Below are positions 3,001 to 62,300 of a stretch of DNA of 64,000 nt, piece after piece (positions within the stretch are counted from its first letter, which is position 1; each line of letters starts with the position of its first letter). The position numbers and the translations under genes are program-made. Below the pieces are notes generated by a model that saw nothing but the letters and a program-made list of their open reading frames with translations, searched no databases and was not told where the DNA came from. This DNA is from Eledone cirrhosa (lineage: Eukaryota): NCBI GenBank assembly GCA_964016885.1, contig OZ024741.1:356996001-357060000 (forward strand), read 5' to 3'.

Positions 3001-6000
3001 ACTGTTCCACAGTCTTCACCACTGCCATCAAGACCCCTACTGTTACACAGTCTTCACCACTGCCATCAAGACCCCTACTGTTACACAGTCTTCACCACTA
3101 CCATCAAGACCCCTACTGTTACAAAGTCTTCACCACTACCATCAAGACTCATACTGTTACACAGTCTTGACCACTGCCATCAAGACCCCTACTGTTACAC
3201 AGTCTTCACCACTGCCATCAAGACCCTTACTGTTACAGTCTTCACCACTGCCATCAAGACCCCTACTGTTACAGTCTTCACCACTACCATCAAGACTCCT
3301 ACTGTTACACAGTCTTCACCATTACCATCAAGACCCCTACTGTTACACAGTCTTCACCACTACCATCAAGACCCCTACTGTTACACAGTCTTCACCACTG
3401 CCATCAAGACTCCTACTGTTACACAGTCTTCACCACTACCATCAAGACTGCTACTGTTACACAGTCTTCACCACTACCATCAAGACTCCTACTGTTACAC
3501 AGTCTTCACCACTACCATCAAGACCCCTACTGTTACACAGTCTTCACCATTACCATCAAGACCCCTACTGTTACACAGTCTTCACCATTACCATCAAGAC
3601 CCCTACTGTTACACAGTCTTCACCACTACCTTCAGGACCCCTACTGTTACACAGTCTTCACCACTACCATCAAGACCCCTACTGTTACACAGTCTTCACC
3701 ACTACCATCAAGACTCCTACTGTTACACAGTCTTCACCACTACCATCAAGACCCCTACTGTTACACAGTCTTCACCACTACCATCAAGACCCCTACTGTT
3801 ACACAGTCTTCACCACTACCATCAAGACCCCTACTGTTACACAGTCTTCACCACTACCATCAAGACTCCTACTGTTACACAGTCTTCACCACTACCATCA
3901 AGACCCCTACTGTTACACAGTCTTCACCACTACCATCAAGACCCCTACTGTTACACAGTCTTCACCACTACCATCAAGACCCCTACTGTTACACAGTCTT
4001 CACCACTACCATCAAGACTCCTACTGTTACACAGTCTTCACCACTGCCATCAAGACTCCTACTTTTACACAGTCTTCACCACTGCCATCAAGACTCCTAC
4101 TGTTACACAGTCTTCACCACTACCATCAAGAACCCTACTGTTACACAGTCTTCACCACTACCATCAAGACCCCTACTGTTACACAGTCTTCACCACTACC
4201 ATCAAGACTCATACTGTTACACAGTCTTCACCACTGCCATCAAGACCCCTACTGTTACACACTCTTCACCACTACCATCAAGACCCCTACTGTTACACAG
4301 TCTTCACCACTGCCATCAAGACCCCTACTGTTACACAGTCTTCACCACTACCATCAAGACCCCTACTGTTACACAGTCTTCACCATTACCATCAAGACCC
4401 CTACTGTTACACAGTCTTCACCACTACCATCAGGACCCCTACTGTTACACAGTCTTCACCACTACCATCAAGACCCCTACTGTTACACAGTCTTCAGAAC
4501 TACCATCAAGACCCCTACTGTTACACAGTCTTCACCACTACCATCAAGACTCCTACTGTTACACAGTCTTCACCACTGCCATCAAGACTCCTACTTTTAC
4601 ACAGTCTTCACCACTGCCATCAAGACTCCTACTGTTACACAGTCTTCACCACTACCATCAAGAACCCTACTGTTACACAGTCTTCACCACTACCATCAAG
4701 ACCCCTACTGTTACAAAGTCTTCACCACTACCATCAAGACTCATACTGTTACACAGTCTTCACCACTGCCATCAAGACCCCTACTGTTACACACTCTTCA
4801 CCACTACCATCAAGACCCCTACTTTTACAGTCTTCACCACTGCCATCAAGACCCCTACTGTTAGACAGTCTTCACCACTACCATCAAGACTCCTACTGTT
4901 ACACAGTCTTCACCATTACTATCAAGACTCCTACTATTACACAGTCTTCACCACTACCATCAAGACCCCTACTGTTACACAGTCTTCACCATTACCATCA
5001 AGACCCCTACTGTTACACAGTCTTCACCATTACCATCAAGACCCCTACTGTTCCACAGTCTTCACCACTGCCATCAAGACCCCTACTGTTACACAGTCTT
5101 CACCACTGCCATCAAGACCCCTACTGTTACACAGTCTTCACCACTACCATCAAGACCCCTACTGTTACACAGTCTTCACCACTGCCATCAAGACCCCTAC
5201 TGTTACACAGTCTTCACCACTGCCATCAAGACCCCTACTGTTACACAGTCTTCACCACTGCCATCAAGACCCCTACTGTTACACAGTCTTCACCACTGCC
5301 ATCAAGACCCCTACTGTTACACAGTCTTCACCACTACCATCAAGACCCCTACTGTTACACAGTCTTCACCACTGCCATCAATACCCCTACTGTTACACAG
5401 TCTTCACCACTACCATCAAGACCCCTACTGTTACACAGTCTTCACCACTACCATCAAGACCCCTACTGTTACACAGTCTTCACCATTACCATCAAGACCC
5501 CTACTGTTACACAGTCTTCACCACTACCATCAATACCCCTACTGTTACACAGTCTTCACCACTGCCATCAAGACCCCTACTGTTACACAGTCTTCACCAC
5601 TGCCATCAAGACCCCTACTGTTACACAGTCTTCACCACTACCATCAAGACCCCTACTGTTACACAGTCTTCACCTCTACCATCAAGACCCCTACTGTTAC
5701 ACAGTCTTCACCACTACCATCAAGACTCCTACTGTTACACAGTCTTCACCACTACCATCAAGACTCCTACTGTTACACACTCTTCACCACTACTATCAAG
5801 ACCCCTACTGTTACACAGTCTTCACCACTGCCATCAAGACCCCTACTGTTACACAGTCTTCACCACTACCATCAAGACCCCTACTGTTACACAGTCTTGA
5901 CCACTGCCATCAAGACCCCTACTGTTACACAGTCTTCACCACTGCCATCAAGACCCTTACTGTTACAGTCTTCACCACTGCCATCAAGACCCCTACTGTT

Positions 6001-9000
6001 ACAGTCTTCACCACTACCATCAAGACTCCTACTGTTACACAGTCTTCACCATTACCATCAAGACCCCTACTGTTACACAGTCTTCACCACTACCATCAAG
6101 ACCCCTACTGTTACACAGTCTTCACCACTACCATCAAGACCCCTACTGTTACACAGTCTTGACCACTGCCATCAAGACCCCTACTGTTACACAGTCTTCA
6201 CCACTGCCATCAAGACCCTTACTGTTACAGTCTTCACCACTGCCATCAAGACCCCTACTGTTACAGTCTTCACCACTACCATCAAGACTCCTACTGTTAC
6301 ACAGTCTTCACCATTACCATCAAGACCCCTACTGTTACACAGTCTTCACCACTACCATCAGGACCCCTACTGTTACACAGTCTTCACCACTGCCATCAAG
6401 ACTCCTACTGTTACACAGTCTTCACCACTACCATCAAGACTGCTACTGTTACACAGTCTTCACCACTACCATCAAGACTCCTACTGTTACACAGTCTTCA
6501 CCACTACCATCAAGACCCCTACTGTTACACAGTCTTCACCACTACCATCAAGACCCCTACTGTTACCCAGTCTTCACCACTACCATCAAGACCCCTACTG
6601 TTACCCAGTCTTCACCACTACCATCAAGACCCCTACTTTTACACAGTTTTCACCACTACCATCAAGACTCCTACTGTTACACAGTCTTCACCACTACCAT
6701 CAAGACCCCTACTGTTACACAGTCTTCACCACTACCATCAAGACTCCTACTGTTACACAGTCTTCACCACTGCCATCAAGACTCCTACTGTTACACAGTC
6801 TTCACCACTACCATCAAGACTCCTACTGTTACACAGTCTTCACCACTACCATCAAGACCCCTACTGTTACACAGTCTTCCCCACTACCATCAAGACCCCT
6901 ACTGTTACACAGTCTTCACCACTACCATCAAGACTGCTACTGTTACACAGTCTTCACCATTACCATCAAGACTCCTACTGTTACACAGTCTTCACCACTA
7001 CCATCAAGACCCCTACTGTTACACAGTCTTCACCACTGCCATCAAGACTCCTACTGTTACACAGTCTTCACCACTACCATCAAGACCCCTACTGTTACAC
7101 AGTCTTCACCACTACCATCAAGACCCCTACTGTTACACAGTCTTCACCATTACCATCAAGACCCCTACTGTTACACAGTCTTCACCACTGCCATCAAGAC
7201 TCCTACTGTTACACAGTCTTCACCACTACCATCAAGACCCCTACTGTTACACAGTCTTCACCACTACCATCAAGACCCCTACTGTTACACAGTCTTCACC
7301 ATTACCATCAAGACCCCTACTGTTACACAGTCTTCACCACTACCATCAAGACCCCTACTGTTACACAGTCTTCACCATTACCATCAAGACTCCTACTGTT
7401 ACACAGTCTTCACCACTAACATCAAGACCCCTACTGTTACACAGTCTTCACCACTGCCATCAAGACTCCTACTGTTACACAGTCTTCACCTCTACCATCA
7501 AGACCCCTACTGTTACACAGTCTTCACCACTACCATCAAGACTCCTACTGTTACACAGTCTTCACCACTACCATCATGACTCCTACTGTTACACAGTCTT
7601 CACCACTACCATCAAGACCCCTACTGTTACACAGTCTTCACCACTACCATCAAGACCCCTACTGTTACACAGTCTTCACCATTACCATCAAGACTCCTAC
7701 TGTTACACAGTCTTCACCATTACCATCAAGACCCCTACTGTTACACATTCTTCACCACTGCCATCAAGACCCCTACTGTTACACAGTCTTCACCACTACC
7801 ATCAAGACTCCTACTGTTACACAGTCTTCACCGCTACCATCAAGACTCCTACTGTTACACAGTCTTCACCGCTACCATCAAGACTCCTACTGTTACACAG
7901 TCTTCACCACTACCATCAAGACTCCTACTGTTACACAGTCTTCACCACTACCATCAAGACTCCTACTGTTACACAGTCTTCACCCCTAACATCAAGACTC
8001 CTACTGTTCCACAGTCTTCACCACTGCCATCAAGACTCCTACTGTTACACAGTCTTCACCACTACCATCAAGACTCCTACTGTTACACAGTCTTCACCAC
8101 TACCATCAAGACTCCTACTGTTACACAGTCTTCACCATTACCATCAAGACTCCTACTATTACACAGTCTTCACCACTACCATCAAGACCCCTACTGTTAC
8201 ACAGTCTTCACCACTACCATCAAGACTCCTACTGTTACACAGTCTTCGCCACTACCATCAAGACCCCTACTGTTACACAGTCTTCACCATTACCATCAAG
8301 ACCCCTACTGTTCCACAGTCTTCACCACTGCCATCAAGACCCCTACTGTTACACAGTCTTCACCACTACTATCAAGACCCCTACTGTTACACAGTCTTCA
8401 CCACTGCCATCAATACCCCTACTGTTACACAGTCTTCACCACTGCCATCAAGACCCCTACTGTTACACAGTCTTCACCACTGCCATCAAGACCCCTACTG
8501 TTACACAGTCTTCACCACTACCATCAAGACCCCTACTGTTACACAGTCTTCACCACTACCATCAAGACTCCTACTGTTACACACTCTTCACCACTACCAT
8601 CAAGACCCCTACTGTTACACAGTCTTCACCACTGCCATCAAGACCCCTACTGTTACACAGTCTTCACCACTACCGTCAAGACCCCTACTGTTACACAGTC
8701 TTCACCACTGCCATCAAGACCCCTACTGTTACACAGTCTTCACCACTGCCATCAAGACCCTTACTGTTACAGTCTTCACCACTACCATCAAGACCCCTAC
8801 TGTTCCACAGTCTTCACCACTGCACTGCCATCAAGACCCTTACTGTAACAGTCTTCACCACTGCCATCAAGATCCCTACTGTTACACAGTCTTCACCACT
8901 ACCATCAAGACCCCTACTGTTCCACAGTCTTCACCACTGCACTGCTATCAAGACCCTTACTGTAACAGTCTTCACCACTGCCATCAAGACCCCTACTGTT

Positions 9001-10048
9001 ACACAGTCTTCACCACTACCATCAAGACCCCTACTGTTACACAGTCTTCACCATTACCATCAAGACCCCTACTGTTACACAGTCTTTACCACTACCATCA
9101 AGACCCCTATTGTTCCACAGTCTTCACCACTGCTATCAAGACTGCTACTGTTACACAGTCTTCACCACTGCCATCAAGACCCCTACTGTTACACAGTCTT
9201 CACCACTACCATCAAGACCCCTACTGTTACATAGTCTTCACCACTGCCATCAAGACTCCTACTGTTACACAGTCTTCACCACTACCATCAAGACCCCTAC
9301 TGTTACACAGTCTTTACCACTACCATCAAGACCCCTATTGTTCCACAGTCTTCACCACTGCTATCAAGACTGCTACTGTTACACAGTCTTCACCACTACC
9401 ATCAAGACCCCTACTGTTACACAGTCTTTACCACTACCATCAAGACCCCTACTGTTACACAGTCTTCACCACTGCCATCAAGACTCCTACTGTTACACAG
9501 TCTTCACCACTACTGTTACAGTCTTCACAACTACCATCAAGACCCCTACTGTTACACAGTCTTCACCACTGCCATCAAGACCCCTACTGTTACACAGTCT
9601 TCACCATTACCATCAAGACTCCTACTGTTACACAGTCTTTACCACTACCATCAAGACCCCTACTGTTCCACAGTCTTCACCATTACCATCAAGACCCCTA
9701 CTGTTACACAGTCTTCACCACTGCCATCAAGACTCCTACTGTTACACAGTCTTCACCACTGCCATCAAGACCCCTACTGTTACACAGTCGTCTCCACTAC
9801 CATCAAGACCCCTACTGTTCCACAGTCTTCACCACTGCCATCAAGACCCCTACTGTTACACAGTCTTCACCACTACCATCAAGACCCCTACTGTTACACA
9901 GTCTTCACCACTACCATCAAGACCCCTACTGTTACACAGTCTTCACCACTGCCATCAAGACCCCTACTGTTACACAGTCTTCACCACTGCCATCAAGACC
10001 CCTACTGTTACACAGTCTTCACCACTACCATCAAGACCCCTACTGTTA
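1..10048 (+). repeat. 38-bp tandem satellite array, forward arm (continues beyond window start)
   Basis: Monomer ACACAGTCTTCACCACTACCATCAAGACCCCTACTGTT repeated head-to-tail with point variants and occasional 2-bp (AC) deletions. Confidence 0.98.
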
Positions 10049-11877
10049 CACAGTAAGGGTCTTCATGGCAGTTGTGAAGACTGTATAACCGTAGGGGTCT
10101 TGATGGCAGTGGTGAAGACTGTGTAACAGTAGGGGTCTTGATGGCAGTGGTGAAGACTGTGTAACAGTAGGGGTCTTGATGGTAGTGGTGAAGACTGTAA
10201 CAGTAAGGGTCTCGATGGTAGTGGTGAAGACTGTAACAGTAAGGGTCTCGATGGTAGTGGTGAAGACTGTAACAGTAAGGGTCTTGATGGCAGTGGTGAA
10301 GACTGTGTAACAGTAGGGGTCTTGATGGCAGTGGTGAAGACTGTGTAACAGTAGGTGTCTTGATGGCAGTGGTGAAGACTGTGTAACAGTAGGGGTCTTG
10401 ATGGTAGTGGTGAAGACTGTAACAGTAAGGGTCTCGATGGTAGTGGTGAAGACTGTAACAGTAAGGGTCTCGATGGTAGTGGTGAAGACTGTAACAGTAA
10501 CGGTCTTGATGGCAGTGGTGAAGACTGTGTAACAGTAGGGGTCTTGATGGTAGTGGTGAAGACTGTGTAACAGTAAGGGTCTCGATGGTAGTGGGAAAGA
10601 CTGTAACAGTAAGGGTCTTGATGGCAGTGGTGAAGACTGTGTAACAGTAGGGGTCTTGATGGTAGTGGTGAAGACTGTAACAGTAAGGGTCTTGATGGTA
10701 GTGGTGAAGACTGTGTAACAGTAGGGGTCTTGATGGTAGTGGTGAAGACTGTGGAACAGTAGGGGTCTTGATGGCAGTGGTGAAGACTGTGGAACAGTAG
10801 GGGTCTTGATGGTAGTGGTGAAGACTGTGGAACAGTAGGGGTCTTGATGGTAGTGGTGAAGACTGTGGAACAGTAGGGGTCTCGATGGTAGTGGTGAAGA
10901 CTGTGTAACAGTAGGAGTCTTGATGGTAGTGGTGAAGACTGTGTAAAAGTAGGAGTCTTGATGGCAGTGGTGAAGACTGTGTAACAGTAGGGGTCTTGAT
11001 GGCAGTGGTGAAGACTGTGTAACAGTAGCAGTCTTGATAGCAGTGGTGAAGACTGTGGAACAATAGGGGTCTTGATGGTAGTGGTAAAGACTGTGTAACA
11101 GTAGGGGTCTTGATGGTAGTGGTGAAGACTGTGTAACAGTAGGGATCTTGATGGCAGTGGTGAAGACTGTTACAGTAAGGGTCTTGATGGCAGTGCAGTG
11201 GTGAAGACTGTTACAGTAAGGGTCTTGATGGCAGTGCAGTGGTGAAGACTGTGGAACAGTAGGGGTCTTGATGGTAGTGGTGAAGACTGTAACAGTAAGG
11301 GTCTTGATGGCAGTGGTGAAGACTGTGTAACAGTAGGGGTCTTGATGGTAGTGGTGAAGACTGTGTAACAGTAGGGGTCTTGATGGCAGTGGTGAAGACT
11401 GTGTAACAGTAGGGGTCTTGATGGTAGTGGTGAAGACTGTGTAACAGTAGGGGTCTTGATGGTAGTGGAGACGACTGTGTAACAGTAGGGGTCTTGATGG
11501 TAGTGGTGAAGACTGTGTAACAGTAGGAGTCTTGATGGTAGTGGTGAAGACTGTGTAACAGTAGGGGTCTTGATGGTAGTGGTGAAGACTGTGTAACAGT
11601 AGGGGTCTTGATGGCAGTGGTGAAGCCTGTGTAACAGTAAGGGTCTCGATGGTAGTGGGAAAGACTGTAACAGTAAGGGTCTTGATGGCAGTGGTGAAGA
11701 CTGTGTAACAGTAGGGGTCTTGATGGTAGTGGTGAAGACTGTGGAACAGTAGGGGTCTCAATGGTAGTAGTGAAGACTGTGTAACAGTAGGGGTCTTGAT
11801 GGTAGTGGTGAAGACTGTGTAACAGTAGGGGTCTTGATGGCAGTGGTGAAGACTGTGTAACAGTAGGGGTCTTGATA
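10049..11877 (-). repeat. 38-bp satellite array, inverted arm
   Basis: Reverse complement of the same monomer (AACAGTAGGGGTCTTGATGGTAGTGGTGAAGACTGTGT) from the junction at 10041-10055 to about 11877. Confidence 0.97.
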
Positions 11878-18999: not shown

Positions 19000-19305
19000 A
19001 TTCTCAGAAAGATTGTCACGGCAAAAAGCATACAGTCTACACTGTAAAGTGGTTGTGTAGGTGTCACAACAAAAAGGACCCAGCACACACTGTAAAATGG
19101 TCTTGTAGGTGCCATGACAAAAAGCACCCAGTACTCACTGTAAAGGAGGTTGGTGATAGGAAGGGCATCCAGCTATAGAAACCAAGCCAGAAATCGGTTC
19201 TGTATGAGCAGGACATGGTCACCTGACCTAGCATTGCTCATAACAGGATAACTCGTCTAACCCATGCCAGCGTGGAAAAATGGACGTAAAACAATGATGA
19301 TGATT
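19000..19305 (+). mobile_element. short retroelement carrying the RTE 3' UTR and (GAT)n tail
   Basis: GGTTGGTGATAGGAAGGGCATCCAGC...CCCATGCCAGCGTGGAAAAATGGACG...GATGATGAT matches the 3' UTR at 42190-42355. Confidence 0.7.
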
Positions 19306-35690: not shown

Positions 35691-37779
35691 AAGAATTTTA
35701 GAAATCAATATATATGACTTTCCTGTCTCAAAAATTGTTGGTCTTATGCTAAAATTAAAAAACATTATTTTTCCATAAGAAATATTTGCCAGCTTGCAAT
35801 GCTATTCAATCTTCCTACAAGAACACCTGCCTGTACTCTATCCAGGGAAATAGTAATTTTTTTTTTTTTTTTTTTTGTAGGGGAGGGATTGTCTGTTAAA
35901 TCATCATCATCATCACCATCTATTTTCCATGCTTGCAGAGTTAGAGAGGTTGCTATGTTTTGAGGTTAGACTGGTCAGGTAACCATATCTTGCTCGTAAG
36001 TTCCATTTTGGGCTTTGTTTCTTCCTAACACCAACCATTTTACAGCATATATTGGGAACATTTTATCATGACCCCATCACTACCACCTGGGTGCTTTTCT
36101 TTGTGGCACCAACACTACCACTTTTCAGAATAGGCTGGGTGCATTCCTTTAGCGACACCATCACTGGGTAGGCATAGACAACAGTGGCAGGAAGTCCTAC
36201 TGTCATAAGAGAAGAAGTGCCTGGTCATGGGAGTGAACATGGAGAAAGTAAGTTGCATCTGGCAGTATATTGGGAAGCATGCCTGGCTTTCCATGCTAGT
36301 ATGGGTTGGTCAAGGGAGTGAATCAGGTATGTGGATGGGATTAGGGGTGATACATCTTTCTTCCATGCTGGCATGGGTTGGGCAGGGAAAGAAATAGAAG
36401 ATGAGGTAAGGTAGGAACACTTCTTTTTCTTTCTGTGTTAACATGGGTTAGATGAGGGAAGTGGGAAGAGTAAAGTATGTGAGTATTTAGGGAGTGGATG
36501 GAAAAAGGAACTGTCAGGCCTGTCTATCTCATTCTTTCTTGTATTTCACCCAGTTTGTGTGGGAAAACATGTCTTCTGCAGTATGACGTATTGCCAGTTG
36601 ACTCCATCCTGAGTTATCTCCTTCATGAGGTTCGTCTTCACAAGGGTAGCTTTGGATAGAGAAAATAGTGATAAGCACTGATACAGTGGGTAGCAAAGAT
36701 CCACTGTGTGTATGTATGAACCTGTAACACCTGAAACAGTCTTAGAGACACCATCTTGGGTACTTTAAACCTGGTGGAACCCATCCCTCTCCAGGTCTGA
36801 ACACAGCCAATTTCTTCTGGAGAAGGAGAGAGAAAGGGTGATAGAAAGGAAGCGAAAAGGAGATATAGAGGAAGAATTGATCCCAGTATTGGACTAGTTC
36901 ATTTTTTTATATCAATCAACCTCAAAACGATGAAAGACAAAATTGACCTTGGCAGGATTTGAACTCCGAGAGTCAAAAGTTTCCCTAATAAGGAATAAAT
37001 ATAAACACTTTAAAATAAACAGCTTAGTATAATAGAATCAGGAGCAGTTTCAGGAAGTTTGGTATCGAAAAAGTTAAGAGATATTTTTTGTGGGAGTCAA
37101 TAGAAATTATTGTAACATACATCTTTACAATATTTCATTTATTTACCAGAATTATGCATCAATGTAACTTCTATGAAAACATGATATACTGGTTTGGAGA
37201 AGAAATTTTGGTTGAAATATTTATCTGTTTATATCTACTATTTCTAGTTGTTATATAAGCAATAACCATCTATTCACCCAGTAAGGTGACTTTGTAGCTT
37301 TCAATAGCATGTGTGAGTACATACGTGTGTGTTTACACAAATGTGTGTGTATGTGCATATATATATATATATGTGTGTGTGTTAAAGTGTGCACATATAT
37401 GTATATGTACATATACGTGTGTGTACATGTATGTGTGCACATATATTTATATGTATAAAATGCGTGTGTGTGTGTGCATATGTGTAAATATATATATGTG
37501 AATATGTCTGTATATGTAAGTGTGTATGTGGTTAAGCAATGACTCAAAGCATATTGACTGAAGTACATTTTCTACTGGTCGAGGGCATGTGTAGGTGCAG
37601 CTAGTATTTTAGTTATTTTAATGCATTAGCTAATGAGGGAGCCTCTATGTGGTTGTTCACCCTGTTAGAAATAGCAGCCAATCCTATCCTCCTAACCTCG
37701 ATCACCCAGCGGGGAGCCCCACTGATTCCACACTTCCCTTCCATTTTCCACTGTCATTCATGAAGGTCTTGATCCCCTC

Positions 37780-40696: not shown

Positions 40697-42355
40697 CAGC
40701 TAGAAGTACCTAGCTAAAAGTAAACCCCTATACTTAGCTTTTGTTGACTTGGAGAAAGCCTTTGACAGAGTCCCCCGCTCCATTATCTGGTGGTCTCTTA
40801 GAAAACTAAGTGTTGATGAATGGCTTGTGTGAGCTATACAAGCCATGTATAAAGAAACAGTCAGCAAGGTTAGAATTAACAACGAATATAGTGAAGAGTT
40901 TAGCGTAAAAGTTGGTGTTCATCAGGGCTCTGTTCTTAGCCCCCTACTATTTATTATTGCCCTTCAGGCTATAACAGAGGAGTTCAAGACTGGCTGCCCA
41001 TGGGAATTCCTATATGCAGATGATCTAACGCTCATAGCTGAATCAATGGCTGAACTAGAGAAGAAATTCCAAACATGAAAGCATGGCCTAGAATCAAAAG
41101 GCCTTAAAGTTAACTTGTCTAAGACTAAAGTTCTAGTTTGTAGGAAGGAAAATAGGGCACCGGTCCCATCTGGGAAATGGCCATGCTCAGTGTGTAGGAA
41201 AGGAGTAGGCAGAAACTCCATTTTATGTCCCAAATGCAAAGTATGGGTGCATAAAAGATGTAGTGGGATCACAGGTAAGCTAACTAAGAATAGAGATTTT
41301 ATATGTGGCCGGTGCTCTGGTGCAAGAAGTAGCAGCAAGTGCCCACAGAATACTAACTCATTCCATTGCACAGATGGTTCTATAGAAATAGTGGACACTT
41401 TCCGTTACCTGGGTGACAAAATCAGCAGTGGGGGAGGGTGCTCTGAAAGTACAGTAGCTAGAGTTAGAACGGGATGGAAAAAGTTCAGAGAGCTTATACC
41501 ACTATTGGCCGCTAAAGGGTTCTCTCTAAAAATGAAAGGCAGGCTGTATGATGCCTGCATACGAACAGCAATGTTACATGGCAGTGAGACATGGGCATTG
41601 TGTGCAGAGGATATACGCAGACTGGAGAGAAACGAAGCTTGCATGCTTTGCTGGATGTGTAATAGTACGTGAACAGCAAAGCATAAACGAACTAAGGGAG
41701 AAATTAGAAATAAGAGGATCAGATGTTGTTTACTCGAGAGAAGACTACGTTGGTACGGTCACGTGATGCGCATGAAAGATGACAGCTGTATAAAAAAGTG
41801 CAGGGCGATAAAAATAGACGGTAGCCACAGAGTAGGCAGACCCAGAAAAACCTGGGACGACTTGATAAATTCCGACCTCACACACATACACCTCTCCAAG
41901 ACAATGTCACTGGACCGAGATCTTTGGCGCTACACAGTAATAGAGAAAATCCGCTTTACCTAAGTACAAAGTGAAACCTACAGTCAGTAGGCACCTCTAA
42001 CATAAATACACTCCGTCCCACTACCCCCACCCCATCCACACCACCCCCTTAAATGTGAAGTTATGTTGGTACCACAACATCCAGTCCGAAACAAATGAGG
42101 TTGTGTAGGTGTCACGACAAAAAAACACACAGTCCACGCTGTAATGTGACCGTGTAGGTAACACGGTAAAAACCTCCCAGTCCACACTGTAAACGTGGTT
42201 GGTGTTAGGAAGGGCATCCAGCCATAGAAAACCCGCCAGACAGTCCTATACGAGCAGGACAACCAATCTTGCCTCAAGTGGGAAAACTCCCGTCCAAACC
42301 CATGCAAGCGTGGAAGATGGACGTTAAACAATGATGATGATGATGATGATGATGA
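40697..42355 (+). mobile_element. 5'-truncated RTE-clade LINE (RT, PHD-type finger, 3' UTR, (GAT)n tail), disrupted
   Basis: AFVDLEKAFDRVP, GVHQGSVLSP, LYADD and GRPRKTW motifs; stop at 41076 and frameshifts; high identity to 53750-55847. Confidence 0.95.
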
Positions 42356-46306: not shown

Positions 46307-47718
46307 CTTCAGAATTAGTTAATTCAACATTTCACTAATCAATGGATCAAGTATCAATTGAGGTCATACTGAAATCAATCATAGCCTGGAACTTAGTTTA
46401 ATCAATATTAGAATAATGTCCTCCAGCTAATTTTGAAATGCTTAATTAATTAATGAAGACAGTAAAGCCATAGGACATTTTCAAGATACTTGAGATATAA
46501 AAAAATAAGTCAGTGATTGGTTGCTGAGAGCCAATGAGTAATGGAGTTATAGAGAGAGAGTTTGGTTTTTCTTATTAAGGATATATTGAAAAGTTCAAGA
46601 CCTCATTTTATCAAGGATAAGAATACTTAAAATATGGTTGTAATTATCCTAGTGCCAACAGGAAATTTATTGAACATTAGTGTGTGTGTATGTGTGGGGG
46701 GTATCATCATCATCATCACCATTTAACGTCTATTTCTATGCTTGCATGTGTTAGACAAGCTGTCATGTACTAAAGCTAGACTTGTCAGGTGACCAAGACT
46801 TACGTTTATGCTCCGTTTTGGGGTGTGTTTGTACTGTTGGATACCGTTCCTAACCCTAACCACTTTACAGTGTCTACAAGAAGAATTTTATTGCAAGTTC
46901 AGCCTGAGCAGAATGGACTAGTGGTTTTTTATTGTGATGCCAACACTATTATTTTACGGAGTGAGCTGGGTGCATTTTATCTTGGCACTAGCACTACCTC
47001 ATTACGACACTAGGGTGCTCATTGTGTTCCTGGCAAGACTGCAGTGGCATAGATGAGAGTAGGGGAGGAAGAACATGCAGGAGGTGACAGGTTTTCTCTA
47101 TATATATATGTATGTATGTATATATATGTATATATGTATATATGTATATATATGTATATATGTATATATGTAAATATATATATATCTTCCTACGGAATCA
47201 CCTTTATAACTCACCCACACACACACCCCAAAAAAATTTTTTCCCACACGCCACCTACACCCACAACACGCTTAAACCCCACACACACGTGCTTTCCACC
47301 ACATATTTACACCTTCAGCCTCCGGATTCCTCTCTACCCACCCCTCTATCCACACACGCACACACACTCCGACCTACACCCCACCTCACACACACATCTT
47401 CCTGAACATGCAACCCCCGTTCCTCCCCCAACCTTTGCTTTCACATACACACACACACACATGTACACCTACACACACACACCACCTTCAGCCCTCCCCG
47501 CTCGGACACCCCGTCTCCCTCTCCCCACTCCACCCGCCACCACCCCTACACACCCCACACCCTTCCACCACCTGTTTTACCCCTTTTTAATTTTATTTTA
47601 TTTTGATCATGCTTTTATTTTTAATTTCATTCGCACCGTTTCCTCCCACCCCCTTTTTGCTATATGTCTCTCCACCACTTCCCTACACACCCTTTGAACT
47701 CTCTTCCCACACACTTTT

Positions 47719-48592: not shown

Positions 48593-48669
48593 AGCTATAT
48601 TCCAGGTGTCAACAGACACATTAACATACACACACACACATATATATATATATATACACATATACAGAC

Positions 48670-48738
<69 letters not shown>

Positions 48739-48895
48739 TTGGAGCTCTGAAATAGCAATATATATATATGGATGTATATATAATGTATTTTGCAATACAC
48801 TTTATGCTTAATTAAAAGCATTTTGAAGACCGTAAGCTATTGTTTTAAAGTAGTGACAAATTCACTCACTTTGATCTCAGCAAACAGGGGAGATA

Positions 48896-48939
48896 AGCCG
48901 ACAAGTCTTGTTTCGCTTTGGTTGAAGCTTATCAAGGCC
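48896..48939 (-). ncRNA. type I hammerhead ribozyme motif (inverted copy)
   Basis: Exact reverse complement of 49032-49075. Confidence 0.78.
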
Positions 48940-49031
48940 AACTACCCCACCTGCATAATCAGCTCCTGATTATTTACTAGATTTCTATAAGAATATAACA
49001 TCAATGATCTCAGTAAACAGGTGGGGTAGTT

Positions 49032-49075
49032 GGCCTTGATAAGCTTCAACCAAAGCGAAACAAGACTTGTCGGCT
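49032..49075 (+). ncRNA. type I hammerhead ribozyme motif (U3-A8 variant)
   Basis: Stem I GGCC/GGCT; TTGATAA; stem II GCTT-CAACCA-AAGC; GAAA; stem III ACAAG-A-CTTGT; GTC triplet at 49069-49071. Confidence 0.8.
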
Positions 49076-49599
49076 TATCTCCCCTGTTTGCTGAGATCAA
49101 AGTGAGTGAATTTGTCACTACTTTAAAACAATAGCTTACGGTCTTCAAAATGCTTTTAATTAAGCATAAAGTGTATTGCAAAATACATTATATATACATC
49201 CATATATATATTGCTATTTCAGAGCTCCAATTCTAATTTTTAATTTCTGCCTGACCAACAACCGCTCTGCATAATCAGCTCCTGATTAATTACTAGATTT
49301 CTATAAGAATATAACATCAATGATCTCAGTAAACAGGTGGGGTAGTTGGCCTTGATAAGCTTCAACCTGTATGAGCAAGGCATGGTCAACCGACCAGACA
49401 CTGCCCACAACAGGACGACCCGTCTAACCCATGCTAGCATGGAAGAACGGACATAAACGGTGATGATGGTGATACACACACATATACACATATATACACA
49501 CACACATATATATATATATAAACTATAAACATATACAAACACATCTACAGAAATACACATATATACAAAATACATAAACACATACACATATATATATAT

Positions 49600-50406
49600 A
49601 TATATAAATGAAAGGTATAAAAATTGTTTTAGCGAAAAGCTAACAGTATTCCATAACATATATGCGACTATGTCGTCAAGATGCGAAAAATAGTTAACGT
49701 AAGACGTAGGAAAAATAATTCAAAACTCATCTCAAAAGAGAATCAGGATACAAATTCATCCACAGAATTTAGTGAAATCCAGGAAAAAATCAATAGACCC
49801 TTAACTCATGATAAAATAAAGTCTAAAATACTTATCCTTCAATTTGGAAAAACATCAAATGCTCTGTATAGTCTTAAAGACTATTTCATGAAAACTTTCA
49901 GTGGAGATGGTCACGGTTGGATTTCAATCGTCAGCAGAGCTCAACAGATAACCAGGGCTCCCACAGAATTATAGGCCAAAAAGGGAATTCTAAAACTGGC
50001 TAGTTCACCATCATGCGTGATTATGAAAAACGCACATGAGGAAAAACAGGGCTAGTGACGTCAGGATGAAAATGAATGTTTGTTTACAAGAAATAACAGT
50101 CAAATACATTCCGAAAAAAAAACTCTACAAAAGGAGTTCAGCAAACAGCAATATTATCGCAGTTTTTATTAAATAAAACCAGGATTAGTCACAGATAATT
50201 TAAGCACTCAAGGAAAAAAATCCGAGTATAAATATAAATGAAAGGTATAGAAATTGTTTTAGCGAGAAGCTAACAGTATTCCATAACATATATGCGATTA
50301 TGTCATCAAGATGGGAAAAATAGTTAACGTAAGATGTAGGAAAAATAATTCAAACTCATCTCAAAAGAGAATCAGGATACAAATTCATCCACAGAATTTA
50401 GTGAAA
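49600..50406. repeat. unclassified element with ~175-bp terminal direct repeats, flanked by (TA)n
   Basis: 49601-49777 matches 50233-50406; the internal part 49905-50160 is homologous in inverted orientation to 56643-56897. Confidence 0.7.
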
Positions 50407-50412
50407 TATATA

Positions 50413-50495
<83 letters not shown>

Positions 50496-50556
50496 AAATA
50501 TACATATATATACATATATACATGCATAAACATATACATATATACATATATATATA

Positions 50557-51110
50557 TGGTGGCTGCCAACTCGTTTTCGAGTACGGCCACTACTTTATAT
50601 CCCTGTAGGAGAACCCCTACCGATGCGCTGAACGAGTGTGACTTTTTAGTCCAGCCAGCGACTTGAAAACTCTGGTACAAACACTACACTTGTGACAATT
50701 ATTAACACAGTGCTGGGCCCATGGTACCATGTGACGACAAGTGCAGAGAGATCTCCAGATATAAAGCAATGCCTGTGCCGTGAAGCTTTTATAGTGAGCA
50801 AAGGCACTGCACAAAGCCAGTCCCACTCTCTTAACCAAGATGATATTTACCAAAAAGAAGAACAAGTCAACATCATTGGATACCATCAGGGTTGCAGGTG
50901 CTATATCAGAGTTTTCCTTCTCCTAGAATTCTGCCTTGACAAAGGCTAAGAGGTCATCTCTCCCGGTGATTTTGGATGGCCATTGACTCTTAAGAGCTCC
51001 TTTGCTCTTTGACAGGTTTTGTTTTTAGTCCTGCAGGATGTCCAAAGTCACCCTCCTCACCAAGAAACCTTGGTGGGGTTGCCAGTTTAGTTGTCAACGA
51101 CCCGACCATG
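50557..51110 (-). mobile_element. short RTE-derived element, probably internally deleted (5' UTR-like part plus C2H2 3' end)
   Basis: The 3' part encodes [24 protein letters not shown] and is an inverted copy of 52435-52617; bounded by (TA)n on both sides. Confidence 0.55.
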
Positions 51111-51163: not shown

Positions 51164-51657
51164 AGGCAGACCCAGAAAAACCTGGGACGATTTGATAAAA
51201 TCAGACCTCACACACTTACACCTCTCCAAGACAATGTTACTGGACCGAGATCTTTGGCGTTACGTAGTAATCCAGAAGACCCGCCTTGCCTAACTACAGT
51301 CAGTAGGCACCTCTTAACCAAAATACACCCCCGTCCCACTAACCCTACCCCCACCGCCATCTACACCACCCCTTTTAATGTAAAGCTATGTTGGTAGCAC
51401 AACATCCAGTCCTAAATAAATGAGTTCGTGTAGGTGTCAACAAAAAACACACAGTCCACGCTGTAATGTGGCCATGTAGGTAACACGGTAAAAACCTCCC
51501 AGTCCACACTGTAAACGTGGTTGGTGTTAGGAAGGGCATCCAGCCGTAGAAAACCCACCAGACAGTCCTGAGCAAGACAACCAATCTTGCTTCAAGTGGG
51601 ACAATTCCCATCCAGACCCATGCTAGCATGGAAAATGGACGTTAAATGATGATGATG
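51164..51657 (+). mobile_element. 3'-end copy of the PHD-RTE family
   Basis: GRPRKTWDDLIKSDLTH, 3' UTR and (GAT)n, matching 41833-42355. Confidence 0.9.
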
Positions 51658-52617
51658 TATATCTTGGAAGCACTCTGAGTATGTCCTGCAATCTTGATGA
51701 GGAAATATCAAACAGGATACAGAAAGCCAGTGATACTTCTGGAAAACTGAACAAGCGTCTCTGGTCTCAACACGGAATTTCGGTAAAGACAAAGCTCAAA
51801 GTGTATCATGCGTGTGTGCTCGCGGCACTTCTTTATGCTTGTGACACGTGGGTGGTCTACCGTAGACAGATGAAGCGACTTGAGAGGTTCTACCAGTACT
51901 GCTTATGTCAGATCCTCGGCATAACCTGGCAAATGTTTGTCAGTGACGTCGAGGTTCTGGACAGAAGTGGCTGTGATAGTGTCGAGTCCTTGATTTAGAA
52001 ACAGCAGCTGCGCTGGACAGGCCATCTTGTAAGGATGAATGACAAGCGAATGCCGAAGCAGCTGCTTTATGGCGAGCTCCAAATGGGAAAAAGGAACGCG
52101 AGCAAACGCAAGATACGTTTTAATGACTGCGTCAAGGGGGCACTCAAGAAAAGTAACATGTGCTAGCAACCGATCGCATTGGAGGAAAGCAGTGACTAGT
52201 GGCAAGAGTCTATTTGAGGAAACAAGAAGAAGGCACGCGACACTAAAAAGAGATGTCCGGAAAGGAATCCATGTTGGCCTTCCCGAAGGCACTGACAGAC
52301 GGCCTGACCTGACATGTGAGACCTGTAATAGGGTTTGTCTGAGCATGGCAGGTCTAAAGAGTCACTTGAGAGTGCACAAGAACAGGGAAGCAGGCACCTG
52401 TGGAGCTATAAGTGTTCATCACACGACACTTTGGGTCACATGGTTCCATGGGCCCAGCACTAGGTGTCAATAATTGTCACAAGTGTAGTGTTTGTACCAG
52501 AGTTTTCAAGTCGCTGGCTGGACTAAAAAGCCACACTCGTTCAGCGCATCGGTAGGGGTTCTCTTACATGGATATAAAGTAGTGGCCGTACTCGAAAACG
52601 AGTTGGCAGCCACCATG
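51658..52617 (+). mobile_element. RTE (BovB-like) LINE 3' fragment with two C2H2 fingers, disrupted
   Basis: YLGSTLS..LDEEISNRIQKAS..TKLKVYHACVLAALLYACDTW, QLRWTGHLVRM..RMPKQLLYGEL, CETCNRVCLSMAGLKSHLRVH and [17 protein letters not shown]. Confidence 0.85.
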
Positions 52618-52638
52618 TGTATGTGTATGTATGTATAC

Positions 52639-52659
<21 letters not shown>

Positions 52660-52669
<10 letters not shown>

Positions 52670-53748: not shown

Positions 53749-55842
53749 ATCATCATCATCATCATCATCATCAACGTTTAACGTCCGTGTTCCACGCTTG
53801 CATGGGTTTGGACGGGGGTAGTCCCACTTGAGGCAAGAGTGATTGTCTTGCTCGCATAGGACTGTCTGGCAGGTTTTCTACAGTTGGATGCCCTTCCTAA
53901 CACCAACCACATTTACAGTGTGGGTCTGGGAGGTTTTTACCGTGTTGCCTACACGGCCACATTACAGCATGGACTGTGTGTTTTTTTGTCGTGACACCTA
54001 CACGATCTCATTTGTTTCGGCCTCGATGGCGCGGCACCAACATAACTTTACATAGAACGGGGTGGTGTGGATGGGGTGGGGGTGGTGGTGGTGGGACGGG
54101 GTGTATTTTGTTAGAGATGCCTACTGGCTGGAGTAGGTTTTACTATATATTTAGGTAAGGCGGGTCTTCTCTGTTACTGAGTACCGCCAAAGGTCTCGGT
54201 CCAGTGACATTGTCTTGGAGAGGTGTAAGTATGTGATGTCGGAGTTTATCAGCTCGTCCCAGGTTTTTCTAGGTCTGCCTATTCCGTGACTACCGTCTAT
54301 CTTTATTGCCCTGCACTTTGTTATACAGCTATCGACTTTCATGCGCATCACGTGTCCATACCAACGTAGCCTTCTCTCAAGTAAACAACATCTGATCCCT
54401 CTTATCTCTAATTTTTTCCTTAGTTCGTTTATGCTTTGCCGTTCACGTATATTACTGTTACACATCCAGCGGAGCATGCAAGCTTCGTTCCTCTCTAGTC
54501 TGCATATATCCTCTGCACACAATGCCCAGGTCTCACTGCCATGCAGCATTGCTGTTCGTATGCAGGCATCGTACAACCTGCCTTTCATTTTTAGGGAGAA
54601 CCCTTTAGCAGCTAATAGTGGTATAAGCTCTCTGAACTTTTTCCAACCAGTTCTGACTCTAGCTACAGTACTTTCAGAGCACCCTCCCCCACTGCTGATT
54701 TTATCGCCCAGGTAACGGAAGCTGTCCACTATTTCTATAGAACCCTCTGCGCAATTGAAAGAGCTAGTATTTTGTGGGCACTTGCTGCTACTTATTGCAC
54801 CAGAGCACCGGCCACATGTAAAATCTATGTTCTTAGTTAGCTTACCTGTGATCCCACTACATCTTTTATGCACCCATACTTTGCATTTAGGACATAAAAT
54901 GGAGTTTCTACCTACGCCTTTCCTACACACCGAGCACGACCATTTCCCAGAAGGGACCGCCGCCTTGTTTTCTTTCCTACAAACTAGTACTTTGGTCTTA
55001 GCCAGGTTAATTTTAAGTCCTTTTGACTCTAGGCCGTGCTTCCATGTTTGGAATTTCTTCTCTAGCTCGGCCATTGATTCCGCTATGAGTGTCAGGTCGT
55101 CTGCGTATAGGAGTTCCCATGGGCAGCCTGTCTTGAACTCCTCTGTTATAGCCTGAAGGGCAATAATAAATAGTAGTGGGCTGAGAACAGAGTCCTGATG
55201 GACGCCAACTTTTACGCTAAACTCTTCACTATATTCGTTGTTAATTCTAACCTTGCTGACTGTTTCTTTATACATGGCTTGTATAGCCCTCACAAGCCAT
55301 TCGTCAACGCCTAGTTTTCTAAGAGCCCACCAGATAATGGAGCGGGGGACTCTGTCGAAGGCTTTCTCCAAGTCGACAAAAGCTAAGTAGAGGGGTTTAC
55401 CTTTAGCTAGGTACTTCTCCTGTAGTTGTCGTACTATGAAAAGAGCGTCTGTGGTACTTTTGCCTGACACAAACCCGAACTGCATTTCATCTAGGTCAAT
55501 TCTTTCTCTGATTAGTTGCGCTATTACTTTTTCCGTGACCTTCATGACCTGGTCGATTAATTTAATGCCTCTATAGTTACTCCTATCTAGGGCATCTCCT
55601 TTACCCTTATAACAGTTAATGATGATGCTGCTATGCCAGTCCTTCGGAACAACCCCATTCTGTACGACTTGGTTAACTATGCGGGTGACCATGGTGTGTC
55701 CCACCGTGCCAGATGCCTTCAGCATCTCAGCAACTATTTCCGAAGGCCCAGCCGCCTTACCCGTCTTCATATCCTTGATTGCCTTACTTATTATACTCCC
55801 CTCGACTAACACTGCTGGTCCCTCTATTGGGTCGATATGGGG

Positions 55843-55847
<5 letters not shown>
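53749..55847 (-). mobile_element. 5'-truncated RTE-clade LINE with an uninterrupted RT reading frame
   Basis: GKAAGP, NYRGIKL, QFGF, DLEKAFD, LYADD, C4HC3 finger and GRPRKTW motifs; 3' UTR and (GAT)n tail. Confidence 0.95.
54151..55847 (-). CDS. RTE reverse transcriptase, 5'-truncated, no native start
   Basis: Open frame of about 565 codons containing the RT motifs; the first ~21 aa of the track ORF come from a (TA)n tract and the adjacent element. Confidence 0.7.
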
Positions 55848-55882
<35 letters not shown>

Positions 55883-55884
<2 letters not shown>

Positions 55885-56135
55885 AAGGCGGGTAAAATTC
55901 CCGAGATCCATGGACGAGTTCTCTCCAGCGGTCTCTGTCCCTCATTATCGCTGCCATATCCTGCCTCTCCAACAGACCAGTGTCTGTCCTTAGGGCATCA
56001 ACATATGTTAACCTTGGTCTTCCTCTTCTAGTGTGTCCATGTAGGGGCTCCCAAAGGAGCACTGAGTGCAATGTCAACTCTGGATGTCGGTGAGCATGTC
56101 CAGCCAACCTCAGTCTTCTCTGTGTCACTTTTGAC
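55883..56135 (-). mobile_element. RTE LINE 3' fragment
   Basis: RRLRLAGHAHRHPE..VLLWEP.HG..RRGRPRLTYVDAL..DTGL. Confidence 0.8.
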
Positions 56136-56495: not shown

Positions 56496-56642
56496 AATTA
56501 ACACTTAACATTTAATATTCTACCATATTATTTCATTCTAATACCATTATAAATTTTAAATGATTGTAAATAAAATGAGTAAATCAGACAAAGTTTGAAT
56601 TCCTTTTATTAATATATATATATATATATATATATAAAAACG

Positions 56643-56897
56643 CGATAATATTGCTATTTTGCTGAACTCTTTACATTTTGTAGAGTTATTTCGGAATGTT
56701 TTTGACTGCTGTTCCTTGTAAATAGACATTCATCTCATTCTGACGTCACCAGCCATGTCTCTCCATGTGTATTTATTTTCATAATTCCGCACGAGGTGAA
56801 CTAGCCTGCTTTTAAATTCCCTTTTTGGCATATTTTGGCAGTGGTAATTTAGGTTAGCGTGTTTGAGCTCTACTGAGGAACGATTCCAACCGTGACC
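56643..56897. repeat. dispersed repeat, inverted homolog of 49905-50160
   Basis: Shared blocks GCGATAATATTGCT, CTGACGTCAC, GGTGAACTAGCC, AATTCCCTTTTTGGC and TCCAACCGTGACCA. Confidence 0.7.
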
Positions 56898-57325
56898 AAT
56901 CCCACAGGAAACTGGGTTAACTCCGACATAAAACCTGCGGCTCAGTAGTTACCGATGATGTTGATCTTTTCTTCTTTTCGGGTTATAGCTACTGTCGCTC
57001 AGAAAGTGGGATTGGCTCAGTGCACAGTCTTTCCTCACTTTAAAAATATTCGTCACGCACAGGCATTGCACGAGTGCATTAATAATTAATAATAGTGTAC
57101 TATTATTATTATTATTATTGATCTAAGCAGACGTAGTTTGCTCGCTCACAGTAAGTCGATTTATTTGCCTATTTAAATTATTTGTTGCTAAATATTTCTT
57201 GTTGTATAAGGGATACAAAGCCGTTAGACTTTGTCCCGTGAAGGGGAAAGTATAATATTTGGGCCTTTTGGCCCAAATATTTGAACTTTTTTTTACATGT
57301 TAAAAAATTTACGAAAAAAAAAAAC

Positions 57326-59331: not shown

Positions 59332-62300
59332 ATGGCCATATTAAGAGTAAGATGTTTAAATGTTCGAGGCCTGGGATCGTCCTGGAAGCAGGGTCACCTG
59401 CTCAACGACCTCAGGTCTATAGAAATGGATGTAATTGCAGTCAGCGAGACCAGGATTTCTGACATGCGCACACTAGCCCCCATTTTCGACGACTATCAGA
59501 TCTTTGCATCTGTCTGTTAGCCGGCTGGGAATGGGAGGCGGGGTGGCAGTGCTGTTTAGGAAAGGCCTGGATCTCGAGGTAAGGTCGATCTTCCGGGACC
59601 CGGATGGTAAGTTGGTGGTCCTGGACGTGAACAATAATGAAGGTGGTGCCTTTAGACTGGTGGCCGTCTATGCTCCTACTGGGGAAGGACGGCCGGACTT
59701 CTTTAGATGCCTGGAAGCCTTTCTGGGTACGTCTCGCCCTTTACTGTTAGCGGGGGACTGGAATGGCATCTTAGACGCACACTGGGACTGTGTGGGAGTA
59801 TCCGATAGGAGCGGGGGGTGCAAAAGCCTCAAGAACCTGATCAGCCAGTTCCAACTGTCTGACAGGTACCGACTAGATTTCCCTAATGCGCCAGTGTGGA
59901 CCTGGGCTAACCGCATAGGGTCATCTAGATCGTATATAGACAGGATATTCATTAGGAAAATAGACAGAAATAGTGTAAGCTGTCCATGTTTTGAAACGGT
60001 CGCCTATTCAGATCACAAGTTTGTGATCTGTATGGTCGACCTAGATAAGACGCGTAGGTTAGGACCTGGTTACTGGAAGCTAAACATATCATTTCCGGCA
60101 CGTAAGGCTTACAGGGACCAGGTCAACAATTTAGTTAAGAAAAAGTTTACAGGGGAAGTCGTCAACAATAGATGGTGGGGGGCTCTCAAAAGAGAGATTA
60201 GAGTAATGTCGATAGAGTTTAGCAAAGAAGTAGCATTAGAGATAAATAGAAAGGAGGGGGAGTTGGTAGATAAGTTAGACGAGGCTATTGGTAGTGGCAT
60301 TGCAACTGATGTGCTAGCGGCGAGAATGGCATTAGACCATTTCTTCAATGCGAAACACGAAGGTTGCATTGTCAGAGCTAAGGCGCGTGCTCTGAGAAAC
60401 GAGGGAACCAAAGCTGTTCGATGGGCCCGCGTGGCAGAGGCGCAGCGTGGTAATAAAACCACGATTTGGTCTTTGACGGACCGAGACGGGCACGAGCTGA
60501 GCGATTCCAAGAAGATGTGTGAGGCCTTTCGCCAACATTTTGCTCGGTTGTTCAGGGGAAGTGGCGGGTCAGAGATGGTGGTGGACTTCAGTCCCTACCT
60601 CAATGGCTTGCCGCAACTCTCGACGGCTGGCGCTGGGCACTGCGAAAGGCCAATTACTTCAGCTGAGATTCAGGATGCCCTTGTCGGCTGCATGAGGCGC
60701 AAGTCACCCGGTTTGGATGGTCTGCCCTACGAGCTTTACGTAAATATGCCAGACTTGTTCTCCAATCTCCCCGAAGCCCTCTACTGCAACTGGCAGCAAA
60801 ACGGGAGTATTCCCAGTTCTGTGAGCCAGGGCGTAGTGACGTTGATAAGGAAAGACAAGAACAAGAGGGACACATTAGACAATTTCAGGCCCATAACTCT
60901 GCTCAACACAGAGTTTAAGATTTTGGCCAGGATGTTAGCGAAGAGGTTGGCGCTTGTCGTCGGGGATTTGGTTGGGGAGGTGCAAACTTGCGCAATCCCA
61001 ACCAGGTCCATACACGACAACCTCCACCTAATACGATACATCATAGAGAGGGTAGGGTGTAAACCTGGCTTCGGTGGGGCTCTGATCAATTTAGATCAAT
61101 CGAAAGCATTCGATAGGGTCGACCATCGGTACCTGGAGGCTGTCCTCAAGGCGGCTGGCTTCGGCCCCGTCTTCAGAAGCTGAATCGCTGCAATGCACAG
61201 CGGCACCTGCTCGATGGTCAAAATTAATGGCCACCTCTCGGAACCGTTTCAGGTCTCCCGATCGGTCCGTCAAGGGTGCCCTCTCTCCTCCCTTCTGTAC
61301 GCATTGACTCTCGAGCCTTTACTGCGGAAGCTGGAGCTGTTGCAGGGCATCCCGCTCGAATCGGGACGCGGAAAGGCCGTGTCGGCTTATGCGGACGACA
61401 TCACCGTGATGGTGTTGGACACCTCAGAAATCGAGGTGGTCGGCAACTTATTGGAGGAATATGAAAGGTTGACGGGAGCAAAACTTAACCCGGAAAAGTC
61501 AGTAGGCTTGCAACTCGGCACCTGGAGAGGCAAGTCCATGCCGTCCAACAGCATCGTTAGGCGCTGGACGGACGGACTGGTAAAGTTGCTAGGGGTTTGG
61601 TTCGGGCCAGACCTCCAGGTGGATAAGAATTGGGACGAGGTGACGGGCAGGGTAGTCAGTCTCACCCAGAAATGGGCTGGGATGAAGCTATCACTGAAAG
61701 GTCGGGCGGAGGTGGCGAACGCGTACATCGCGTCCGTCATCTACTACCGTCTGACTGTCGTCCCTTGCCCCCGTTCGCACCTCACCATCTTGGAGCGGCT
61801 CCTCTTCAAATTCTTGTGGAGGGGTCAGGTTCCGCTGGTGAGGCGGTCCATCTGCTGCCAGCACCCTCTACGTGGAGGGCTGGGCATGCCGTGACTAATG
61901 ATGCGCAGGCACGCGCTGAGGCTGCGGCATCTCCAGATATTCTGCCTAAACGGTGAACAGGTGTGGTCGCCGGTTGTCAGACGGGCTTTTCCGCAGCTCG
62001 TTTCTTTGACTGAGCTGCAGTCCTGGGTCAAGAAGAGACCGAGACTGGGTGACTGGCATCTGGAATGTTGCCAGGCACTCACTGCGCTCTACCAGGCGGG
62101 CAATGCGGTCAGTGGAACTTCCACTCTCGAGTTCTATAGAGGATTAGTGGTGGGCAAGTGCGGCGAGGCACTCGGAGAGGCTCTGGGAGTCAACGAAGTC
62201 GAACTAACCAGTCTGTACCGGAGGACTTTCGAGCCGGGGACGATGGATAATTTCCAAAAATCCCTCGCTTGGCATTGCTACCGGGGGGGCACTGCCGGTT

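Follow-up and report, generated by a model that had tools for sequence, protein, structure and literature searches.

Metazoan non-LTR retrozymes have been described from coral, mussel and axolotl (Cervera and de la Pena 2020, PMC7229834), where their spread by Penelope-like elements through circular RNA was proposed. A preprint derives vertebrate non-LTR retrozymes from Penelope terminal repeats (Li, Clavereau and Pollet 2026, bioRxiv 10.64898/2026.07.22.740005). For a copy to count as active there, it must carry two complete hammerheads in succession, and only one of the nine dimers tested cleaved in vitro, so that the activity of the family described here cannot be assumed. That Penelope enzymes move animal retrozymes, with circles as the template, is thus proposed in print and, on the accounts given in the available parts of both sources, unproven (PMC7229834; 10.64898/2026.07.22.740005). 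Penelope insertions form partial tandems that favour microsatellites, may carry a tail of 30-40 bp and in many cases lie next to a 5'-truncated copy in inverted orientation (PMC8557442, PMC3846280). Penelope hammerheads with U3-A8 cores and a palindromic helix III are known, and U3-A8 replaces C3-G8 as a covariation in Schistosoma Penelope elements (PMC4209133). Purified Penelope protein cuts AT-rich DNA and extends both strands, and starts on uncleaved RNA at two internal sites that bound the tail (PMC11167929). We found no description of a cephalopod retrozyme in the literature searched, the supplements of which could list cephalopod hammerheads; in the available part of the giant squid genome report, 235 hammerhead loci are listed without analysis (PMC6962438).

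The locus described here lies in a 64-kb stretch of Eledone cirrhosa DNA (hereafter, the window). It consists of two head-to-head arms of a repeat that has no ORF, keeps a fixed period in other data sets and has recurring TA-flanked ends. The explanation that we favour with reasonable confidence is that a non-coding, abundant family of 316-nt repeats, which resembles a non-LTR retrozyme and has a predicted type I hammerhead, left a single clipped insertion here, which was likely copied into a TA/CA microsatellite by a Penelope-like reverse transcriptase-endonuclease acting in trans. Elements of this kind are already known in animals, and this locus is a damaged copy.

Anatomy of the cassette and its hammerhead motifs

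With unit coordinates taken as the window position minus 48950, the cassette runs from a (TA)n repeat through an inverted arm (287-68), one full unit (1-316) and a partial unit (1-101) to a truncated short repeat of 108 nt and a CA/TA repeat. The left target flank is a (TA)n microsatellite (48640..48733; TRF period 2, 47 copies) that abuts the outer end of the inverted arm (48732..48953, minus strand), a 5'-truncated copy of unit positions 68-287 with its 3' end toward the TA repeat. All 220 of the 220 aligned bases are identical between 49018-49237 and the reverse complement of 48732-48953, and the arms differ by one 2-nt TA indel in an internal TA run. The head-to-head inversion junction (48951..48953) comprises 3 bases common to both arms. 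It is followed by one full period of the repeat (48951..49266, plus strand), as defined by its periodicity, with no long ORF, and then by the second, partial unit (49267..49367, plus strand), which has 100/101 bases the same as 48951-49051 at a period of 316. The partial unit is without the GAAA, helix III and the cleavage site, and its single mismatch (49289) is private to this copy when compared with the family contigs. On the right, a short repeat that lacks its 5' part and ends in a (GAT)n-type tail (49366..49473, plus strand), recognised from related ends in the window and from family contigs, leads to a CA/TA microsatellite (49478..49602, TRF), the right flank, where the unit does not resume. 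The 316-nt unit has 34% GC and a longest ATG frame of 28 aa across six frames and is thus non-coding, which places it within the range of retrozyme units (150-450 bp, GC below 45%, non-coding). BLAST revealed no further copy of the unit within the 64-kb window.

The full unit carries on its plus strand a type I hammerhead with a long helix I (49005..49099), as indicated by the descriptor, the fold, a sub-threshold match to Rfam Hammerhead_HH9 and family variants at 49063/49067, with the cut predicted after C49071. The core from U3 to A9 (49036-49042) reads UUGAUAA, a U3-A8 variant rather than CUGANGA. Helix II (49043-49056) has 4 bp, GAAA and GUC lie at 49057-49060 and 49069-49071, helix III (49060-49070) is an 11-nt palindrome with an unpaired centre, and helix I is extended into a long hairpin (49005-49099) with an internal loop near the core. 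All core positions (as U3-A8) and the three helices of a type I hammerhead are present. The same motif is found on the minus strand (48879..48949, core from 48935), with a complete core, a descriptor match, a sub-threshold HH9 match and a helix I shortened by the outer 13 bases of its 5' arm; the cut is predicted after the C at 48900, as placed via the arm alignment. A strict descriptor run on both strands of the 64 kb returned these 2 sites only, whereas 40 local shuffles gave 0.075 sites on average and never more than 1, and since the sites are copies of each other they count as one independent motif. The fold of 49003-49101 has a z of -7.55. Rfam gave no gathering-level match in the window; Hammerhead_HH9 matched below threshold on each strand (24 bits vs a cut-off of 52, E = 0.0024). 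Rfam matches to microRNA families and RUF21 over the cassette were rejected, being far under their cut-offs and due to the fold-back or the TA-repeat. A search for the exact hammerhead pattern in metagenome contigs gave 0 matches.

Two features of the original prediction are borne out by these data, namely the inverted 220-bp copy with a minus-strand hammerhead (by the 220/220 identity and the descriptor match, with helix I lacking the outer 13 bases of its 5' arm) and the full 316-bp unit with an intact plus-strand hammerhead at the GUC of 49069-49071, whose motif is complete with a U3-A8 core. A second hammerhead was said to be cut at stem II (49367); the truncation is there, but it falls in loop II, so that the 5' strand of helix II is still present. 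The description of 48951-49266 as hammerhead-delimited has to be dropped. Position 48951 is the inversion junction, and a self-cleaved monomer would start at 49072; unit position 1 is therefore a breakpoint rather than a natural start, because the arm junction falls there.

The 3 bases shared at the inversion junction sit in a 12/16-column similarity between the unit end and the antisense of positions 68-85, a score attained by 0.6% of 33,496 position pairs in a test chosen after the match was seen. At the right-hand join, 2 bases (49366-49367) are common to the unit and the short repeat, and contigs of the short-repeat family from three sequencing runs (X3, X6 and X9) match from 49366 on, with upstream sequence of their own. 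We take the short repeat (49366-49473) to be RTE-tail-like. Six related ends, representing more than one subfamily, are present in the window at 19200-19302, 36358-36379, 42289-42344, 46706-46756, 51616-51657 and 53761-53816. An RTE-tail element had been said to cut the unit off; a 5'-truncated short repeat does adjoin the unit, but the unit does not resume behind it, so that it may or may not have inserted later. For the same reason, a clean later insertion of a retrotransposon into the unit fits poorly. The short repeat or the cassette could be the earlier arrival, with a deletion. No target-site duplication is readable at the locus, where the left end is in a microsatellite and the right end is replaced.

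Several other features were noted in the window. About 12 kb at 2-11876 is a 38-bp satellite with a strong strand skew and an orientation switch at about 10042-10054, and the long open frames there are by-products of the satellite repeat. The microsatellite next to the cassette holds an 811-nt element (49597-50407) that is bounded by TA on either side and has direct terminal repeats of 182 nt, with a period of 630 and about 95% identity. This element resembles a partial-tandem insertion; it has no Rfam match and no convincing hammerhead, and an internal part of it (49908-50169) has a minus-strand counterpart at 56634-56898 with 77% similarity. Two inverted 200-nt copies (50509-50708 and 52464-52663), 91% complementary and 1.75 kb apart, are probably a dispersed repeat in opposite orientations. 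Protein-coding remnants include a reverse transcriptase frame with a C-terminal PHD finger (54151-55941, minus strand), for which an atlas of protein clusters has similar clusters of reverse transcriptase plus PHD, a separate PHD fragment (41079-41669, plus strand) and a LINE frame in two pieces with AP-endonuclease and reverse transcriptase (59477-61891, plus strand).

The repeat family in public sequencing runs

Part of the stretch occurs in 15 of the 24 listed sequencing runs, none of which is recorded as RNA, so they are silent on expression. Eight of the 24 were compared. Seven of these are contig runs, with X1, possibly the source sample, as the best match, and the eighth (X16) consists of raw reads, which gave 0 matches when about 1 in 100 was sampled. 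The head-to-tail border of the unit (49266/49267) is crossed by at least 31 letters per side in X1, X3, X5, X6 and X9, that is, in 5 of the 7 contig runs from 5 studies, or 4 studies without X1. Far from being single-copy, which would have told against the original prediction, the unit recurs, and the fixed head-to-tail arrangement of retrozymes is found at the family level. Shorter crossings were seen in X2 (side of 20, or 49 in a 312-nt variant) and X7 (side of 17). Periods of 316, 315 and 312 occur among the contigs listed. One X6 contig, with 3 differences over 284 nt, spans two borders (316/1 and 101/102), and one X9 contig (383 nt, depth 2.8) makes a whole turn, from position 145 round to 150, flanked by unrelated letters and in a different phase from this locus. 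The contigs are too short to show arrays of at least two complete units.

Diversity within the family is considerable. X2 has 1,716 contigs on the unit alone, a large part of which are 85-95% alike, whereas three X1 contigs (102, 104 and 122 nt) match the unit without a difference; 1 of 40 X1 contigs has a non-fitting part, itself a unit variant. These patterns indicate that the family is large and diverse, and that this copy belongs to a young branch of it. The insertion had been called recent, which is plausible given 0/220 and 1/101 substitutions between its parts and the difference-free X1 contigs of 102-122 nt, but copying from one template or gene conversion would look alike. Summed contig depth over 49130-49246 is many times that over the ribozyme in X2 and X3, a measure that does not amount to copy number, and may reflect short 3' stumps or a part common to another abundant element.

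Variation in the hammerhead was profiled per site and is unphased. In X2, the helix III partners 49063 (A>T) and 49067 (T>A) vary at the same depth (2208.9) and with the same contig count (3), the unpaired centre of helix III (49065) also varies, and longer self-complementary forms of helix III occur in family contigs. In X5, 49016 (A>G) and 49088 (T>G) vary at the same depth, which would break that outer helix I pair, here too unphased. Self-complementarity of helix III thus appears to be kept among family variants, with outer helix I apparently less well kept.

Ends of family copies were also recovered. In X2, 6 contigs run into TA at 49237 and 8 at 49211, with outer flanks that disagree (agreement 0.64-0.65), and 49237 is the exact end of the inverted arm at this locus. 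For comparison with the 30-40 nt between the alternative ends of Penelope insertions, these two TA-flanked ends, both from one run, are 26 nt apart as listed, or at most about 34 given the internal TA run; this locus no longer has its right end. A strand switch at 49171/49335, which corresponds to unit positions 221/69, was seen in one X3 contig; its second position agrees with the breakpoint at this locus, where the switch is at 1/68-70. In X5, a share of 0.4 of the matching sequence continues into unlike sequence, as in a 324-nt contig that leaves the unit after 49126; the loose ends seen are the best 13 of 112 and 14 of 128 rows, and a branch into a long element could lie among the rest.

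Among the contigs listed, none spans the inversion or the right-hand junction of this locus, which rests on the assembly. An assembly fold-back artefact is considered unlikely as the source of the cassette: the flanks show no mirror symmetry, a TA slip distinguishes the two arms, and a strand switch at the same breakpoint is present in another contig.

The proposed insertion mechanism and its competitors

The locus matches the footprint of a Penelope insertion in its layout and its target. A head-to-head inverted 5'-truncated copy stands beside a partial tandem, with a second strand-switch joint in the X3 contig, and the left end is in (TA)n, where the 6 X2 contigs end at the same base. The view that inverted plus partial-tandem repeats are typical of Penelope insertions agrees with PMC8557442 and PMC3846280. 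This is not an autonomous Penelope element, as the unit has no ORF and the window no credible GIY-YIG motif, the single six-frame match to that motif lying in a TATA repeat. A Pfam search of 12 of the window's 85 frames of at least 100 aa revealed no Penelope partner ORF.

In the mechanism that we propose, a Penelope-type enzyme would have cut the microsatellite, and either side of the break would have primed cDNA synthesis on an RNA template that was multimeric or circular. The left arm would have started at a preferred site near unit position 285-287, copied through an intact cleavage site and stopped at 68, and the right arm, with a length of at least 417 nt, would have gone more than once round the unit before ending at position 1. 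A short homology would have served to join the arms; the right outer end would have been lost, with the truncated short repeat now in its place. As the 417-nt arm exceeds one unit, the template would have been an uncleaved multimer or a circle, unless the enzyme jumped. The original prediction traced the tandem to a circular or multimeric RNA. This gains from the recurrence of a fixed unit head-to-tail and from the 417-nt arm, which needs such a template if copied in one pass, but the circular and multimeric forms are not separable.

The best surviving competitor, which we regard as unlikely, is that a long coding Penelope-like element left such copies as stumps of its pLTR, in the form of an inverted copy and a partial tandem with a truncated 5' end, with no independent 316-nt RNA. 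The layout is textbook for coding Penelope elements (PMC8557442, PMC3846280), from which U3-A8 hammerheads are also known (PMC4209133). Random 5' truncation should vary the period, yet 316, 315 and 312 recur across studies, and both single contigs and this locus go once round the unit without meeting an ORF; nor does the unit hold an ORF remnant. Among the loose ends listed, one X5 contig exits the unit after 49126 for about 266 letters, as a junction with such an element might, and the depth over about 49130-49246, far above that of the ribozyme, could mean a part common to a more abundant element.

It is quite improbable, in our judgement, that the cassette is a chimera made by an RTE-type enzyme, which would have started in the microsatellite on the tail of the short repeat, moved to the hammerhead RNA as template at position 101 and caused the inversion by twin priming. 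Other copies end at 49237 in TA, with the short repeat absent in the letters listed, the joint of unit and short repeat is in no contig listed, and head-to-head arms are routine in Penelope insertions (PMC8557442, PMC3846280). In favour of such a chimera, the 5' truncation of the short repeat coincides with the join and its 2 shared bases, the tail of the short repeat faces a microsatellite and the unit is not resumed behind it, and the geometry is compatible with the twin priming of L1 inversions. About as improbable is a DNA-level origin, in which a break in a fragile TA repeat was repaired by capture of a satellite unit, a template switch produced the fold-back and the hammerhead is a passenger: the 3 shared junction bases within a longer imperfect similarity, the identical arms and the finding that hammerhead cleavage is unnecessary for Penelope insertion in vitro (PMC11167929) would suit it, but repair would not end independent copies at the same base in TA repeats, and helix III symmetry is retained among the variants.

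Predicted folding and comparison with known systems

Returning to a retrozyme-like unit copied in trans by a Penelope-like enzyme, we modelled how its RNA might fold, using a nearest-neighbour model without tertiary contacts. The catalytic fold is predicted to lie 6.2-6.3 kcal/mol above the best fold for the lone motif, the minus-strand copy and the circular unit. In the predicted blocking fold, 49035-49038 pairs with 49061-49064 and C49071 is paired; for the lone motif, the predicted probability of the blocking pairs is 0.97 and that of helix III is 0.0001. Holding U3 unpaired reduces the gap from 6.2 to 3.9 kcal/mol. The idea that U3 alone causes the misfold was rejected, since 3.9 of the 6.2 kcal/mol persists and U3 contributes only part. 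A double hammerhead made of two copies reaches -22.5 kcal/mol, compared with -23.8 for two blocked monomers and -11.4 for two catalytic monomers, and the best unconstrained dimer reaches -26.0 kcal/mol. The lone monomer is thus predicted to be self-blocked and the dimer to be nearly competent, though not the predicted minimum. Within the family, the lone hammerhead would misfold and the double hammerhead of tandem transcripts would cleave better.

This copy itself is predicted to be inactive as a source of unit RNA. It has no two consecutive complete hammerheads, the second one ending in loop II at 49367, and with only one complete hammerhead per strand no 316-nt RNA can be released from the locus. 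The predicted fold of an RNA that reads through the entire cassette has -426 kcal/mol, and the plus hammerhead would form there at a cost of about 115 kcal/mol. Whichever flank it enters from, a read-through transcript contains the antisense arm ahead of the hammerhead, so that the plus hammerhead is predicted to be buried in a 220-bp duplex. The suggestion that transcripts would form long dsRNA with ribozymes on both strands is not sustained, as the ribozymes are predicted to be masked in the dsRNA at that same cost.

It is possible, if on balance doubtful, that the family persists as a small RNA circle copied round and round by a Penelope enzyme from fixed starts flanking the break, with the hammerhead as a copy-number switch. 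The core swap would help the core to pair with helix III and so leave the lone ribozyme uncut, and tandem transcripts would be cut as double hammerheads via the palindromic helix III. If true, this switch would explain at the level of the sequence why the circle of an animal retrozyme does not cut itself. The predicted monomer-off, dimer-on fold bears on a point that PMC7229834, in its available part, leaves open, namely what keeps the circles intact. Insertions such as this one, whose ends are fixed and in which one arm exceeds the unit in length, are, in turn, testable footprints of the proposed Penelope-driven spread.

The comparison with described systems can be drawn on three sides. Like the metazoan non-LTR retrozymes, the family has a type I hammerhead in a short, low-GC, non-coding tandem unit; unlike the metazoan elements reported there, it has a U3-A8 core, and this copy has fewer than two complete tandem ribozymes (PMC7229834). 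Its monomer is predicted to be self-blocked, whereas most of the metazoan retrozyme circles in that account, with the exception of some mussel ones, are predicted to fold the ribozyme freely (PMC7229834). The unit size range, the dispersed monomer and partial copies and the link to Penelope pLTRs are shared with the vertebrate non-LTR retrozymes, for which the preprint, as far as available, draws this link from co-occurrence and phylogeny (10.64898/2026.07.22.740005), and here it is drawn from the insertion shape. The layout, the microsatellite or AT-rich target, the palindromic helix III and the U3-A8 core are those of endonuclease-bearing Penelope-like insertions (PMC8557442, PMC3846280, PMC4209133, PMC11167929). 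In contrast to such insertions, this element is without a reverse transcriptase/GIY-YIG ORF and its whole repeat closes on itself at about 316 nt; minimal Penelope hammerheads, moreover, have a shorter helix I and a shorter helix III.
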